From contig JAWVXD010000005.1 of assembly GCA_033723415.1 (NCBI GenBank), forward strand, positions 64,001-128,000: a stretch of DNA of 64,000 nt, given 5' to 3'. The stretch is from Sulfurospirillaceae bacterium. GTDB lineage: Bacteria; Campylobacterota; Campylobacteria; Campylobacterales; Sulfurospirillaceae. Position 1 is the stretch's first letter; every line of letters starts with the position of its first letter. Shown here piece after piece: positions 11,439 to 18,983 of this stretch. A program made the translations under genes and the position numbers. The notes beneath the pieces are model-generated. The model was not told the DNA's origin. It did no database searches and saw only the letters and a program-made list of their open reading frames with translations.

Positions 11439-11735
11439 ATGAAAAAGATAATTATGGCTACAGCTCTTGTTTTCGCAGCAAGCTCAGCAGTAATGGCAGC
11501 AGACACAGATGTTAATGTTGCAACGTGTAAAGGTTGTCATGGACAAAACTTCGAGAAAAAAGCACTTGGTGTATCAAAAATTGTAAAAGATATGACTCAT
11601 GCAGAAATTGCAACTGCACTTAAAGGATATAAAGCTGGTACTTTCGGTGGCGCTATGAAAGGTGTTATGAAAGGTCAAGTATCTAAATATTCTGATGACG
11701 ATTTAGTAGAATTTTCAAAAACAGTAGGTAAGTAA
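11439..11735 (+). CDS. Monoheme cytochrome c553
   Basis: Signal peptide, CKGCH heme motif, distal Met (MKGVM); SD AAGGA before ATG 11439. Confidence 0.92.
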   Translation: MKKIIMATALVFAASSAVMAADTDVNVATCKGCHGQNFEKKALGVSKIVKDMTHAEIATALKGYKAGTFGGAMKGVMKGQVSKYSDDDLVEFSKTVGK

Positions 11736-11743
11736 TTTACTTT

Positions 11744-11763
11744 GGCGGGTATACCCGCCTTTT
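11744..11763 (+). terminator. Rho-independent terminator after cytochrome c553
   Basis: GGCGGG-TATA-CCCGCC followed by TTTT. Confidence 0.75.
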
Positions 11764-11819
11764 GCATACTTTGTCTTTGCCCAAAAGCAATTCTCCACAT
11801 TTTGCAAGGAGATACAAAA

Positions 11820-12116
11820 ATGAAAACTCTCATTTTTTTATTTTTTATTTTTACAAGTACTTCACTTTTTTCATATGATGGCGCTGTTATTTTTAACAAA
11901 TGTGCAAAATGTCATGGCATAGACGGGAAACATAAAGCTTTCGGTAAATCTGCAAAGATAGCCGGTGCACCGGCAAAACAAACTATTGCAGTATTAGAAA
12001 TATTTAAAAATATGTCTAGAGTAGATAAATTTGCAAAAGTCATGAATAAAGAAGTTTCAAAACTAAACGAAGAGCAGATAAAAGCAGTAGCAGAATATAT
12101 CTCAAAACTAAAATAG
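11820..12116 (+). CDS. Second monoheme cytochrome c (c553-like paralog)
   Basis: SD AAGGAG before ATG 11820, signal peptide, CAKCH, C-terminal IKAVAEYISKL. Confidence 0.88.
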   Translation: MKTLIFLFFIFTSTSLFSYDGAVIFNKCAKCHGIDGKHKAFGKSAKIAGAPAKQTIAVLEIFKNMSRVDKFAKVMNKEVSKLNEEQIKAVAEYISKLK

Positions 12117-12117
12117 T

Positions 12118-12354
12118 CTAATCAGGCGGTCCATATCCTTTTTCTTTTGCCTTTCTTTCTTTTATATTCTTTTTTCTTTCTTCCAACATAACAGCATCCT
12201 GCAAAGATTCCTCATCATCATATAAAGCTCCATCCAGAAATTTATTTTGATCATCAAATTGACCTGTTCTTAAACCCCAAATAAGTGCCCAAAGTCCAAA
12301 AGCTCCAAGCGTTATAGATGCCCCAAGCATCATGGCTATAACCCAACTGTTCAT
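12118..12354 (-). CDS. ccoS: cbb3-type oxidase assembly protein CcoS
   Basis: TM helix followed by WGLRTGQFDD; downstream of ccoI. Confidence 0.93.
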   Translation of the reverse strand: MNSWVIAMMLGASITLGAFGLWALIWGLRTGQFDDQNKFLDGALYDDEESLQDAVMLEERKKNIKERKAKEKGYGPPD

Positions 12355-12468
12355 ATTAACTGTCTCCTTTAACTTGGGACAGGTTCCAAGTTAAATTCCT
12401 CTCACTAAAGCTTCGCCCTTGGCGAGAATTTTTCATTAACTGTCTCCTCCAACATTTAGTATGATCAT
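12355..12468 (-). repeat. Dispersed ~80-bp double-hairpin repeat, copy A, with translationally coupled mini-ORFs at 12436-12468 (MIILNVGGDS) and 12356-12436 (MKNSRQGRSFSERNLTWNLSQVKGDS)
   Basis: Direct repeat ATTAACTGTCTCCT at 12355 and 12435; perfect 10-bp inverted repeat 12368-12377/12386-12395; 61/81 nt identical to 18769-18849. Confidence 0.9.
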
Positions 12469-14885
12469 TATTTTCTTTTTGGTGTCTTAATCATATTGAT
12501 TCTCATAGAATTTCCTACAACTATCAATGAACTAAGTGACATTGATAAAGCTGCAAACAGCGGAATCACATATCCTGCCATAGCAAGTGGTATCGTTATA
12601 GCATTATACAAAAATGATAACAATAAATTTTCTTTAACGATACGAAATGTCCTCTTTGAGATCAAGAATGAGTAATACAGTGACTCAAATGAATTATTTA
12701 TAAGTACGACATCACTTACATTTAGAGCTATATCAGCCCCACTACCCATAGTTATAGCTATCTCACTTTTTGAAAGTGCCAAAGCATCATTGATCCCATC
12801 TCCTACCATGACTACTTTTTTACCGTTCTTTCTAGCCTCTTCTATTATATTAGCTTTCTCTTGAGGCAGTAAAGAAGCATAAAATTTTTCTATTCCTACT
12901 CTATTGCATATTTTTTTTGCCACTTCCTTATTGTCTCCTGTCAGCATAATCACTTCTACACCTAAGTGTTTGATATTTTCTATGCTCCAAGCAGCATCTT
13001 CTCTTGGTATATCTTCTAATGCAAAAACTGCCACTACTTCATTATTGATTGCAAAGTAGTATTGACTAAAATCTTCAAAACTGCTATTACATTTTATACC
13101 ATTTTCAGATAATAAACTCATGCTGCCACCATAAAGTGTAGCTCCTTCATAAGTGGCTTTTATGCCTTTTGCTTCGATATTTTTGATGTTTTGCAAGTCT
13201 TTTATTTTAAATTTTTCTTCCTCAAAATATTCTGCTATCGCTTTACTTATAGGATGAGTAGAATTTTTACTTAGAGAATATAAAAGCGATCTGTCAAAAT
13301 CTTTTAAATATACTTTATCCACAATTTTGGGTTTCCCGGAAGTTATAGTACCGGTCTTATCCAACATCAATACGTCACATTTCGCCATAGTTTCTAGAAA
13401 TGAAGCTTCTTTAAATAGGATACCTGATTTAGCAGCCATCCCAAGACCAACAAGCGTAGAAACTGGAGTTGCCAATCCAAGAGCGCAAGGACATGCTATG
13501 ACTATAACAGAAATTGCAACTATTAAAGAGCGCTCAAAAGGTTCTCCGCCAAAATACCAAAATAGTAAAGTTCCAATAGAGAGTAATAAAATAATAGTAG
13601 AGAAGTAACCAGATACGATATTTGCTAGCTTTTCAATTTGTGGTTTCTTATTCATAGAATCTTCTAATAACGAAGTTATTTTACTCAATACCGAAGAATT
13701 GACATCACATATCGCACGATATCTAAAAACAGTATCTAGCGCGATATATCCACTTAGTATCTTATCTCCTGTCTTCAAAAAAACAGGTGTAGATTCTCCT
13801 GTCAAGCTTGAAGTATCAAATGAAGATTCACCGTCAATAATAACGCCGTCAATAACAATTTTTTCACCGGCCTTTACTTCTAATATATCTCCTGTTTTAA
13901 CTTCTTCTACACCTAACAATATCTTTTCATCGTTTTTTATGACCAATACTTCCGTAGGGACTGAGCTGTTAAAACTGTCCAACCTGTCTACAGCCTTTTT
14001 CTTTGATAAAACTTCTAAATATTTTCCTGCAAATACAAAAGTTATGATCATAGTCACAGAATCAAAATAAACTTCTCCTTTTTGAGAAAACATCGCATAT
14101 AAAGAGTATATATAAGCTGAAGTTGCACCTGTTGCAACTAGAATATCCATATTTACATATTTGTTCTTTATCCCGTAATATGCACCTTTAAAATACACCG
14201 AACCCGTGTAAAAAAGAGTTGGTGTTGCTAGTACGAATTCTGCAAAATTCAAGATGTTTTTTATTTCGAGTTTCATGCCTGTAAAATAACCTGCATATTG
14301 AGCTATTGCGATCCACATGATATTCATAGTAGTGAAAACGCCGACCAATAATCTAGCGTAATAATCACGTCTAGTACTATTTGCCTGAATCTCCTGCATG
14401 CTAGGATCATAAGGGTATGCATTGTAGCCGATGTTCCTGATAGTAAGTATGATTTCTGAGAGTTTTATAGTGTCCGGATCCCAAACGATTTTTGCTTTAT
14501 TGTTTGTTTGATTAATGCTTGCTTCTACTATACCATCTTTTTGATGCAATACTTTTTCGTTAAGCCAGACACAAGCGGAGCAGTGAATTCCTTCTATAAT
14601 GAGATAAATCTCATAAAATCCGTCTTTATTTTTTATATATTTTTTGTTAAAACCTTCTAGATCAAATTTTTCAACTTCACCAAGATCTTCTTTTGGTGGT
14701 TCAAGTTCAGTATTTCCGACTCTTTTATAAAAATCATCCAAACCTTCACTTTTCAGAAGATGGAAAACTCCTTGACAGCCTTTGCAGCAAAAATATTTTG
14801 TTGAATCTTCAAAACTGCTGTCTTTAATCAATACCTTTTCGTCAAATTCAAGATGACAATGGTCACAGCGTCTTTTTTGCATCAA
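12468..14885 (-). CDS. ccoI: Heavy-metal P1B-type ATPase CcoI/FixI (copper supply for cbb3 oxidase)
   Basis: N-terminal CxHC...FCCxGC domain, HCSAC, TGES, CPC, DKTGT, GDGIND; adjacent to ccoS. Confidence 0.9.
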   Translation of the reverse strand: MMQKRRCDHCHLEFDEKVLIKDSSFEDSTKYFCCKGCQGVFHLLKSEGLDDFYKRVGNTELEPPKEDLGEVEKFDLEGFNKKYIKNKDGFYEIYLIIEGIHCSACVWLNEKVLHQKDGIVEASINQTNNKAKIVWDPDTIKLSEIILTIRNIGYNAYPYDPSMQEIQANSTRRDYYARLLVGVFTTMNIMWIAIAQYAGYFTGMKLEIKNILNFAEFVLATPTLFYTGSVYFKGAYYGIKNKYVNMDILVATGATSAYIYSLYAMFSQKGEVYFDSVTMIITFVFAGKYLEVLSKKKAVDRLDSFNSSVPTEVLVIKNDEKILLGVEEVKTGDILEVKAGEKIVIDGVIIDGESSFDTSSLTGESTPVFLKTGDKILSGYIALDTVFRYRAICDVNSSVLSKITSLLEDSMNKKPQIEKLANIVSGYFSTIILLLSIGTLLFWYFGGEPFERSLIVAISVIVIACPCALGLATPVSTLVGLGMAAKSGILFKEASFLETMAKCDVLMLDKTGTITSGKPKIVDKVYLKDFDRSLLYSLSKNSTHPISKAIAEYFEEEKFKIKDLQNIKNIEAKGIKATYEGATLYGGSMSLLSENGIKCNSSFEDFSQYYFAINNEVVAVFALEDIPREDAAWSIENIKHLGVEVIMLTGDNKEVAKKICNRVGIEKFYASLLPQEKANIIEEARKNGKKVVMVGDGINDALALSKSEIAITMGSGADIALNVSDVVLINNSFESLYYSFLISKRTFRIVKENLLLSFLYNAITIPLAMAGYVIPLFAALSMSLSSLIVVGNSMRINMIKTPKRK

Positions 14886-18202: not shown

Positions 18203-18769
18203 TCATACTTTTACTCTTAAATCCATAGCTTTTGACAAAGATAAGATATCTACATTTTCAAGATGAACGCCCGTAGGAACACCTTGTGCAATTTTCGTAA
18301 AAGATAAAGACATATCTTTAAGATTATCTTCTATATGCATAATCACAACATCATTCGAAAGTGATGGTGTCAATGCAAATATAATTTCTTTAACTCCATC
18401 TTTAGCTATAGTTTTTAGATGATCTATACTATCCGGTTCTACATTTTCTAATACAAAATATTTTCCGTCATATAAGTTATACTCTTCTAATACCAATATA
18501 TCTTTTGCATTTTCTACTATGCAAATCTTTGTATTGTCACGTTTTTCATCCAGACATATCTCACATATCTCGTTTTCACTTAATGCCCCGCAATTTTGAC
18601 ATTTTTTGATTGATTTGACAGCAATTTCTATTGAATTTGCAAGCTTCATAGCCAAGAAAGTATCATTTAATACTAAGTGATACGCATATCTCATAGCCGA
18701 CTTTTTGCCAACAGTCGGTATAGATTGAAATGCTTCTACTAGATTATTGAATTTTTCTAATTGTTTCAT
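18203..18769 (-). CDS. recR: Recombination mediator RecR
   Basis: PTVGKKSA HhH, C4 zinc finger, ICIVE and AQGVPTG motifs. Confidence 0.95.
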   Translation of the reverse strand: MKQLEKFNNLVEAFQSIPTVGKKSAMRYAYHLVLNDTFLAMKLANSIEIAVKSIKKCQNCGALSENEICEICLDEKRDNTKICIVENAKDILVLEEYNLYDGKYFVLENVEPDSIDHLKTIAKDGVKEIIFALTPSLSNDVVIMHIEDNLKDMSLSFTKIAQGVPTGVHLENVDILSLSKAMDLRVKV

Positions 18770-18983
18770 TAACTGTCTCCTTTAGTTTGGAACTCGTCCC
18801 GAACTAAATTCCTCGCACTAAAGCTAGCGCTTTGCGCAGAGTGTTTCATTGTCTGTCTCCTTTAACTTGGAACTCGTCCAAAGCTAAATTTCTCGTACTA
18901 AAGCACAAAACAGAAGTTTCTGTATCGCTATTTTCTATAATTTGAAAAAGCGCAGGAGTTGAATTTTTGTCTATTTTTTTCAT
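18769..18983 (-). repeat. Tandem copies B2 (18769-18849; MKHSAQSASFSARNLVRDEFQTKGDS) and B1 (18846-18983; 45 codons, 3' part homologous) of the double-hairpin repeat
   Basis: 80-bp period (CTGTCTCCTTTA at 18773 and 18853); homologous to 12356-12436; mini-ORFs overlap their neighbours via ATGA/TAATG. Confidence 0.9.

Follow-up and report, generated by a model that had tools for sequence, protein, structure and literature searches.

The stretch of DNA analysed here (the window) comprises 64,000 nucleotides (nt) of contig JAWVXD010000005.1 (positions 64,001 to 128,000 of the forward strand) from a Sulfurospirillaceae bacterium (GenBank assembly GCA_033723415.1). On its minus strand, at the junction of the genes ccoI and ccoS, lies an element of about 80 nt with two predicted hairpins, a short open reading frame (ORF) that spans both of them, and a Shine-Dalgarno (SD) sequence that serves ccoS. 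The original prediction, made from the letters alone, had singled it out as a dispersed, mobile element that sits at operon junctions without polarity. The features of this junction are given below in the order in which they are read on the minus strand, with positions counted from the first letter of the window and the evidence for each in brackets; R1 is a covariance model whose construction is described in the next section.

12468 to 14885, minus strand: ccoI, coding for a FixI-type P-type ATPase (ORF list; Pfam E1-E2_ATPase, Hydrolase, ATPase-cat_bd and HMA)
12436 to 12468, minus strand: 10-codon bridging ORF, MIILNVGGDS (sequence)
12435 to 12448, minus strand: left copy of the 14-bp direct repeat AGGAGACAGTTAAT, with the SD for the 26-codon ORF (exact 14-nt match between the upstream flank and the element tail)
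12352 to 12437, minus strand: the element as matched by R1 (93.3 bits, E 4e-18 in the window)
12356 to 12436, minus strand: 26-codon mini-ORF MKNSRQGRSFSERNLTWNLSQVKGDS, spanning both hairpins (sequence and ORF list)
12414 to 12424, minus strand: hairpin 1, CGCC-AAG-GGCG, in which 12424-12421 pair with 12417-12414 (covariation)
12393 to 12412, minus strand: conserved 20-nt linker AGCTTTAGTGAGAGGAATTT (near-invariant alignment columns)
12368 to 12395, minus strand: hairpin 2, with a perfect 10-bp stem and an 8-nt loop (sequence, predicted fold and covariation)
12355 to 12368, minus strand: right copy of the 14-bp direct repeat AGGAGACAGTTAAT, containing the SD GGAGA (12367-12363) that serves ccoS (sequence)
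12118 to 12354, minus strand: ccoS, coding for a 78-residue protein of the FixS family (ORF list; Pfam FixS)

The ccoI product is 805 amino acids (aa) long and the 3' end of its gene reads AAA AGA AAA TAA, with the stop codon at 12470-12468. The last A of this stop is shared with the ATG (12468-12466) of the 10-codon ORF, whose own stop (TAA, 12438-12436) in turn overlaps the ATG (12436-12434) of the 26-codon ORF, so that TAATG is seen at both points. The 26-codon ORF ends in GGA GAC AGT TAA, with its stop at 12358-12356, and a single T then separates it from the ATG of ccoS at 12354. This chain of ORFs from the ccoI stop to the ccoS start is present base for base in the minus-strand sequence, as the original prediction had claimed. 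The same holds for the perfect hairpin 2, whose arms TTTAACTTGG (12395-12386) and CCAAGTTAAA (12377-12368) enclose the 8-nt loop and whose 3' side is directly followed by GGAGA; it is the single occurrence of such a hairpin in the window, against 0 expected from 100 shuffles. The 14-bp direct repeat said to bracket the insert is also found, at 12448-12435 and 12368-12355, but its period is 80 bp and not the 81 nt that had been given for the unit.

The 33-nt spacer with the 10-codon ORF (window positions 12436-12470) can be aligned by eye to the 3' coding end of ccoI in a congener (G005), which reads …AAATGT-N3-AGGAGACA…. By this comparison the spacer is probably a remnant of a longer ccoI, and a new stop further upstream seems to have truncated the ccoI of the present lineage. 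The 10-codon ORF occupies a different frame of this putative remnant and links the stop to the start; by a rough post hoc estimate its exact fit from one TAATG to the other is unlikely to be due to chance (about 1 in 100).

Copies and gene junctions in the genome

Searches with blastn-short recovered related pieces on eight contigs, and an iterated nhmmer search raised 39 matches genome-wide. From an alignment of 28 full copies (A1) we built the covariance model R1, which returned 42 matches at E <= 0.01 in the 2.43-Mb genome, besides those in relatives that are reported below. These counts, along with a second full copy in the window, bear out the claim that the element is dispersed. The additional copies in the window are the following.

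18765 to 18850, minus strand: second full copy, directly 5' of recR (R1, 87 bits; Pfam RecR)
18845 to 18924, minus strand: partial upstream unit, in tandem with the recR copy (R1 genome-wide, C5:82845-82924 in our contig numbering, E 2.6e-6)

The 26-codon mini-ORF of the recR copy ends in TAATG on the recR start. In the consensus the 5' part consists of an optional ATG(A/G)A, A/T-rich bases and the pyrimidine tract TTCT, and it is followed by hairpin 1, which is small and variable, with a 4–5-bp stem and a loop that is often CAAAG. The middle is formed by the near-invariant 20-nt linker and a variable hairpin 2 with a stem of 10–11 bp. The 3' part begins with AAAGGAGA directly after hairpin 2 and continues with a spacer of about 7 nt and the ATG of the next gene. 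Two copies (C5:215061-215187 and C3:327645-327751) contain an extra insertion of 20–40 nt inside the linker region, and these insertions have CACAGAGAGTG in common, as if forming an additional stem.

Most of the copies end close to a gene start: 36 of the 42 matches end between -9 and +21 nt from the start of a same-strand ORF of at least 50 aa, and of the remaining six, four are the upstream units of tandem pairs and two have no such downstream ORF. Pfam families are found in 30 of 32 downstream ORFs. These genes comprise an argB-like kinase, rbfA, ccoS, dnaE, a DUF2603 gene, clpX, ureC, a low-molecular-weight phosphatase/ArsC-like protein, recR, a PEP-mutase-family protein, infA, nuoC, parB, a class II tRNA synthetase, an aminotransferase, lutB, an SPFH protein, gpmI, nadC, a TusA protein, rplL, rplK, argG, atpA, tuf, argF, mreB, rpoZ, secY and truD. 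Upstream of 37 of the 42 copies, a co-directional ORF with a minimum of 80 codons ends no more than 300 nt away. Pfam families were assigned to 25 of 29 of these upstream ORFs, among them LpxK, IF-2, CcoI, ArgF, LpxA, UreAB, ArsB, a histidine kinase, Acs, Map, NuoB, ParA, TopA, Fur, LutA, NadA, L10, NusG, the ATP synthase delta subunit, HemB, an amino-acid kinase and others. The junctions so occupied include infB-rbfA, nuoB-nuoC, ureAB-ureC, atpH-atpA, rplJ-rplL and nusG-rplK, as well as parA-parB, arsB-arsC, nadA-nadC, lutA-lutB and hemB-argF. Every interpretable copy is in the sense orientation with respect to the next gene. The element is mainly intercistronic and supplies the SD of the downstream cistron, and its predicted placement at operon junctions holds good, the sites being mostly between co-directional gene pairs. 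The structure is conserved (see below), but the downstream genes are functionally unrelated housekeeping genes, which speaks against a riboswitch or gene-specific leader.

The genes argB, argG and argF (3 of the 32 downstream genes) each have a copy upstream. The hemB-argF junction, occupied here by C5:215061-215187, is also occupied in a low-copy genus (g3), and could be a site of long standing, possibly an ancestral one. The tuf-secE-nusG-rplKAJL cluster (C12:22299-26782) contains three degenerate copies, one between a tRNA gene and tuf, one at nusG-rplK and one at rplJ-rplL; behind each of them comes a separate SD of the gene.

A covarying RNA fold and an occasional mini-ORF relay

The fold predicted by RNAalifold consists of two hairpins, and 12 of its 15 pairs carry compensatory changes. 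Pairing was further quantified in an alignment (A2) of 103 matches (98 distinct rows) from this genome, its relatives and many other Campylobacterales records. Standard pairs occupy 90.0% of the cells, as against 67.6% in shuffles, and 449 cells are changed on both sides, as against 146.8; none of 500 shuffles reached the observed values. When the partner was slid by 1–3 columns as a control, pairing fell to 45–58%. In hairpin 1 (helix 3) 90.6% of cells are paired, with changes on both sides in all 4 pairs, and in hairpin 2 (helix 4) 95.1%, with such changes in 10 of 11 pairs. Given that A2 was fitted to the model, the structure is favoured in it, and given that its rows are related, the shuffle test is inflated; the fold is better supported by the slid control and by the many types of pair found within single columns.

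A short outer stem between TTCT and the AGAG of the linker is 74–85% paired and, since it hardly varies, can be regarded only as possibly enclosing hairpin 1. The outer stem TCTCGC/GTGAGA that the original prediction had drawn for hairpin 1 does appear in the predicted fold of the ccoS copy, but it cannot be family-wide because its 5' arm varies while GTGAGAG does not, and the covariation across the family supports the inner CGCC/GGCG instead. The strong covariation, combined with a 20-nt linker that is invariant across several genera, shows selection on the RNA fold, which is more than would be expected of a neutral hitch-hiker. Other candidate features were inspected by eye and dismissed: kissing of the hairpin 1 loop CAAAG with the hairpin 2 loop CTTTG (no covariation between the two), a promoter of the sigma-54 or another type in hairpin 2 (the spacing is unfit and varies), a kink-turn or loop-E motif within the linker (there is no partner strand) and an intrinsic terminator on the opposite strand (the stem is too weak).

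An ATG at the canonical position is present in 16 of the 42 copies. In nine of these 16 the ORF stops -4 to +1 nt from the downstream start, in the form of TAAnATG, TAAATG, TAATG or ATGA; two others run in frame into the gene, two run into the next tandem unit and three stop early. Across species, 45 of 116 copies have an ATG 16–32 nt before the linker, and in 20 of the 116 the stop falls between -5 and +1 from the start. Closed relays are seen in 11 of 47 copies where the upstream ORF ends at most 12 nt from the element, versus 3 of 50 where no upstream ORF was seen (Fisher p 0.02). The 80-nt period fits either of two overlaps, namely 26 codons with TAATG or 27 codons with ATGA, and as the tail TTAAT(A)TG / TAAATGA stops two of the three frames at the start, coupling is built into the unit. 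An internal ORF whose stop abuts the downstream start is found in all occupied states of ccoI-ccoS and in the parA-parB chain of G010 (both described below), but in a minority of all copies. As read from these sequences, the relay appears to be a real geometry that recurs at independent insertions and preserves the overlap of the empty site, while being facultative and restricted to a minority of copies.

The SD has a mean predicted unpaired probability of 0.67 in the native context versus 0.51 when everything upstream of AAAGGAG is dinucleotide-shuffled (ViennaRNA, n=22, Wilcoxon p 5e-4). This is consistent with a self-contained fold that would keep upstream sequence off the SD. The original prediction had the element bring its own start, open frame, SD and coupled stop. 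In the copies taken together, the SD is indeed supplied, the orientation is uniformly sense and the overlaps are kept at independent sites, but the start is confined to 16 and the coupled frames to 9 of the 42 copies.

Occupied and empty sites in relatives, RNase P RNA and the route of spread

Within the genus, the ccoI-ccoS junction is empty at nine loci, occupied by different copies at three and filled by another spacer at one. The empty loci read ATGA in G008, G007, G004, G001, G002 and a second locus of G003, TGATG in G010, GTGA in G005 and TAGtATG in G011; the search for empty sites that had been proposed along with the original prediction thus uncovered direct ATGA, TGATG and GTGA overlaps of the two genes. 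The occupied loci are those of the present genome (G000; 93 bits with R1), G006 (88 bits) and G003 (a weak match, E 0.001). G006 has a single unit with a perfect 19-bp flanking repeat AAAGGAGAAATTAATATGA and ATGA overlaps at both ends, and at the G003 locus a variant subfamily is represented by two units, with ATGA, TAAaATG and ATGA at the joints. In G013 the junction holds an unrelated 95-nt spacer. The parA-parB junction gives a comparable picture, with five empty loci in the genus (TAAgATG and similar), five occupied ones (G000, G011, G001, G002 and G010) and two with other inserts. In G010 a 35-codon ORF and two 27-codon ORFs are joined by TAAaATG, ATGA and ATGA to parB, and in G017, from another genus, a single unit has a mini-ORF that ends as GTGA on a GTG start. 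The occupied junctions of these two gene pairs hold 1 to 3 units, and both the presence of the element and the number of units vary between related genomes. G009 has a tandem pair upstream of parA instead of between parA and parB (positions 1350-1507 of the G009 locus). No joined (empty-site) form was found in the DNA contigs of four sequencing runs.

A variant linker, GTCGCGAGGAAT, is found in loci of G001, G002, G003 and G010 and has 0 occurrences in the present genome. This restriction to some congeners suggests that subfamilies are lineage-specific, as one would expect of elements that amplify inside genomes. R1 matches were found in each of the 24 genomes sampled from the same family, in numbers between 2 and 90; since at most 110 candidates were scored per genome, these figures are matches and not exact copy numbers. 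Among 16 other families of the order, a single match was found in each of four, and none at E <= 0.001 in the other 12. An exact match to the 20-nt linker is present in at least 121 stretches of a species-representative genome collection; the matches listed carry the titles Sulfurospirillum, Sulfurimonas, Sulfurovum, Arcobacter, Nitratifractor and unnamed Campylobacterales, and one of them is from Sulfurospirillum arcachonense DSM 9755. These linker-bearing stretches show the same architecture, with a gene start behind the SD in 99 of 116 usable copies. The clpX junction is occupied both here and in a Nitratifractor record, and purH copies are seen in two Sulfurimonas records, where the genes were read from their N-termini by eye. 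A blastn search of plasmids gave no match to the element, and one viral contig (IMG/VR) contains the exact 20-mer.

When the covariance models of Rfam 15 were run at E up to 10 against window positions 11500-13500 and the best-scoring copy, they gave chance-level hits only, none of them at the gathering score. Titles and abstract openings in the literature on Campylobacterota, Sulfurospirillum, Sulfurimonas, Sulfurovum and Arcobacter contain no description of such a repeat. To the extent of these sources, the statement that the element does not belong to a described family is upheld.

In genomes with few matches, the R1 matches fall inside the gene for RNase P RNA. Alignment to the Rfam model RF00010 showed that the element is here an insertion of about 78 nt in the loop of helix P12, including a decayed tail, AAGAAGACAGTTTAATGG, and that it lengthens the RNA from about 325 nt to about 400 nt. 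This insertion is present in G015, G020, G023, G016, G008 (C9:162654-162738, E 7e-18) and one G003 contig (C1). The RNase P RNA of the present genome (C8:3624-3948) has a minimal P12, CCGC-GCAA-GCGG, with no insert, and those of G010 and G013 likewise have a short P12 without the element. These RNase P RNA copies show that the unit, with its tail, is moved as a whole and folds independently. The RNase P RNAs of G002, G012 and G004 contain a different palindromic insert (CCTGCCCATAC...GTATGGGCAGG) in each of P3 and P12, and similar GGGC/GCCC-ended palindromes, one of about 290 nt, lie in the parA-parB junctions of G012 and G001. These palindromes look like a second hairpin-repeat family of the genus.

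Seven of 98 copies have a direct repeat, 12–22 nt long (12 nt being the minimum counted), shared by the upstream flank and the tail of the same copy, versus 2 of 970 mismatched controls. In three of these seven the copy belongs to a tandem array; the others have repeats of 14 nt (the ccoS copy), 19 nt (G006) and 17 and 22 nt (two other records). These non-tandem repeats span the SD, the spacer and the ATG, and their spacers are locus-specific, which suggests that they may represent a duplicated SD-start segment of the target or, alternatively, the result of copy-choice between microhomologies at the SD and the ATG. Neither terminal inverted repeats nor a target duplication of fixed length were evident by eye in the aligned copies, and no insertion sequence (IS) partner was identified, although no comparison with ISfinder was made. 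A gene for a Y1_Tnp transposase is present in this genome at C1:746-1036, where the closest copy on the contig is over 100 kb away, and in 22 of the 24 genomes sampled from the family. No Y1_Tnp was detected in the element carriers G018, G021 and G025, and it is present in seven other families of the order that have no R1 match at the same threshold. As the presence of Y1_Tnp does not follow that of the element, the label of repeats like REP or miniature inverted-repeat transposable elements (REP/MITE-like), used in the original prediction, is at best a loose one; the absence of terminal inverted repeats and of a fixed-length duplication, and the single orientation, also speak against it.

A proposed mobile ribosome-binding-site cassette, its alternatives and its relatives in function

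We read the insert at ccoI-ccoS as one copy of an undescribed family of intercistronic repeats of about 80 nt, namely a mobile ribosome-binding-site (RBS) cassette with a selected RNA fold, comparable to the interspersed repetitive units of mycobacteria (MIRUs), and we put the probability of this reading at roughly 65%. The element would insert at the junction of a gene's SD and start codon, and recent copies would be flanked by a 14–22-bp duplicate of this segment. The old RBS of the gene would then drive a 26–27-codon ORF across the element and, because the unit is 80 nt, this mini-ORF would end on or next to the regenerated start (TAATG, ATGA or TAAnATG). Ribosomes would be passed on by termination-reinitiation, unfolding the hairpins in passing. 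Where the ATG has been lost or was never there, the prediction is that the self-contained fold leaves the SD single-stranded, and the downstream gene would be initiated de novo. Insertion would be nearly non-polar in both kinds of copies. The original prediction of a mobile, non-polar junction element would thus stand in its core, that is, the SD and the coupled mini-ORF at this site, while having been too narrow with respect to the mini-ORF and too loose in its 'REP/MITE-like'.

Several observations weigh against a mobile cassette of this kind. The canonical ATG is missing in 26 of the 42 copies here and in 71 of the 116 across species, by itself it is not significantly more frequent at tight junctions (18 of 47 versus 13 of 50, p 0.28), and many ATG-less copies lie directly after an upstream stop, so that the relay cannot be the general function. 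The stop-start overlap is partly built into the consensus and is in itself no proof of selection. The gain in SD accessibility is a modest, in silico one, and there is none in several relay copies, including that of ccoS (0.60 versus 0.56). The direct repeats vary between 14 and 22 bp and are seen in a minority of copies only, and those of G006 resemble the consensus tail of the element more than the empty sites of relatives. Furthermore, the exact linker in different families and the same junctions across genera fit a conserved regulatory RNA equally well.

Such a conserved cis-regulatory RNA would be recognized by one trans factor, a protein or a small RNA, at the linker and two GGA-containing purine tracts; the factor would control the translation or decay of a large regulon, and the copies would reflect growth of this regulon and not mobility. 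Covarying stems next to an invariant single-stranded linker are the usual signature of a functional RNA, and an exact 20-mer common to several genera, the recurrence of the same junction in different genera (hemB-argF and clpX) and of purH in two Sulfurimonas records, and a 5' pyrimidine tract that can pair with GAGAGG of the linker or with the true SD (as judged by eye, and with little covariation) are all in keeping with it. It accounts poorly for the lack of a common function among the 30 Pfam-assigned downstream genes, the range of 2 to 90 matches per genome within one family, and the differences in occupancy between congeners at two junctions, where the occupants come from different subfamilies. 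The existence of tandem arrays, and of copies within RNase P RNA, where no translation is regulated, are equally awkward for it. We therefore consider it unlikely as a replacement for the mobile cassette; it is compatible with mobility and may hold in addition.

The presence of two hairpins in about 80 bp, along with a Y1_Tnp gene here and in 22 of 24 genomes of the family, might instead suggest a DNA repeat mobilised by a Y1 transposase, be it a REP/BIME with its RAYT transposase or a miniature IS200/IS605 element with hairpin ends. A transposase is expected to recognise a constant hairpin, but the stem sequences differ among copies with complementarity alone being kept, and hairpins 1 and 2 are unlike each other. 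The orientation is strictly tied to the downstream gene, the flanking repeats are long and variable in length, and the transposase gene and the element do not co-occur consistently, the local gene being as far from the nearest copy as noted above; hence we find this origin quite improbable. Still less credible is a family of small-protein genes in which the 26–27-aa peptide (M-K-N-S-...-S-F-S-E-R-N-L-...-K-G-D-S) is what is conserved. An ATG at a fixed place in 16 of 42 copies and the reading of the linker as S-F-S-E-R-N in frame 0 would suit it, but 26 of the 42 copies have no ATG, two frames are in use, and some copies run into the next gene or stop at once. Paired changes in the stems alter residues freely, and the same nucleotides are conserved inside RNase P RNA. 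Finally, the 14-bp direct repeat, taken alone, would fit a one-off local duplication at ccoI-ccoS with hairpins and ORFs arising by chance, an idea to which we attach practically no weight: it is refuted by 42 matches here and hundreds in relatives, and the 66 bp between the repeats are no copy of neighbouring sequence.

The preferred reading, that of a mobile RBS cassette, has a close functional analogue in MIRUs, which the relevant parts of PMC12548453 describe as appearing mobile and inserting at start codons, with an internal ORF that is coupled to the gene at a -4 nt (ATGA) spacing; the same parts, citing Supply et al. 1997, hold that this geometry likely minimises the impact on expression. 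To judge from those parts, both are short repeats of tens of bp, often tandem and within operons, and the present element likewise has ATGA/TAATG overlaps, tandem chains and a unit number that varies between genomes. The host phylum differs, and so membership among the MIRUs is not claimed; the likeness drawn here is to MIRU function as described there. Moreover, our element is distinguished by its two covarying hairpins, an invariant 20-nt linker and a strong SD, by conservation across an order, by the lack of an ORF start in most copies, and by its occurrence in P12 of RNase P RNA. The family itself is new and Campylobacterales-wide, and its way of living is a variant of the MIRU kind.

REP/BIME and ERIC of enterobacteria and Correia/NEMIS of Neisseria are small dispersed hairpin repeats that are transcribed in operons or 5' untranslated regions and can alter the stability or processing of mRNA. 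They occur in both orientations and are not known to supply an SD or start to the gene that follows; REPs go together with RAYT transposases, and Correia elements are bounded by terminal inverted repeats and a TA duplication. The present element differs from them in its single orientation, in supplying an SD, and in having no RAYT link, terminal inverted repeats or TA duplication that we could see. Rickettsia palindromic elements are mobile palindromes whose harm is avoided through reading-frame properties, as they lie in frame inside protein genes and become part of the protein; the Campylobacterales element, in contrast, stays between genes. In synthetic bicistronic designs (BCDs), the SD of the target gene lies within a short leader ORF that ends on its start, so that secondary structure is removed by translating ribosomes, which also deliver initiation; in this they resemble the element. 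BCD cassettes are man-made and immobile, whereas the element adds conserved structure and often works without a leader ORF. The use of BCDs in biotechnology is mentioned in PMC12548453, with reference to Sun et al. 2021.

A more far-reaching view goes beyond an analogue of MIRUs and is one that we would entertain only tentatively, finding it possible but on balance doubtful. It would see in the element a self-propagating module of a new class at the RNA level, a portable and insulated RBS that is at once a mobile element and a domesticated, genome-wide device for translation or stability. It would spread to start codons independently of a transposase, by template switching at SD/ATG microhomologies or by way of an RNA intermediate, its fold and linker would be selected throughout the order through a conserved trans factor (the ribosome, an RNase or an RNA-binding protein), and it would be tolerated or used in RNase P RNA.

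If the mobile RBS cassette is the correct reading, a second phylum, with far more sequence evidence, would offer a case of a small mobile element that lives inside operons without polarity, with the RBS regenerated and, if needed, the gap bridged by a coupled mini-ORF. The element would then be a natural counterpart of the synthetic bicistronic design. It constitutes an unannotated RNA family, with a few to about 90 matches in each of the sampled relatives, that calls for masking or annotation in these genomes, as its copies create spurious small ORFs, lengthen RNase P RNA and break assemblies at repeats. The variable number of units at fixed junctions could serve for strain typing, comparable to the use of MIRU variable-number tandem repeats (MIRU-VNTR) in mycobacteria. 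Lastly, the invariant linker points to a conserved partner in bacteria with little-known post-transcriptional control.

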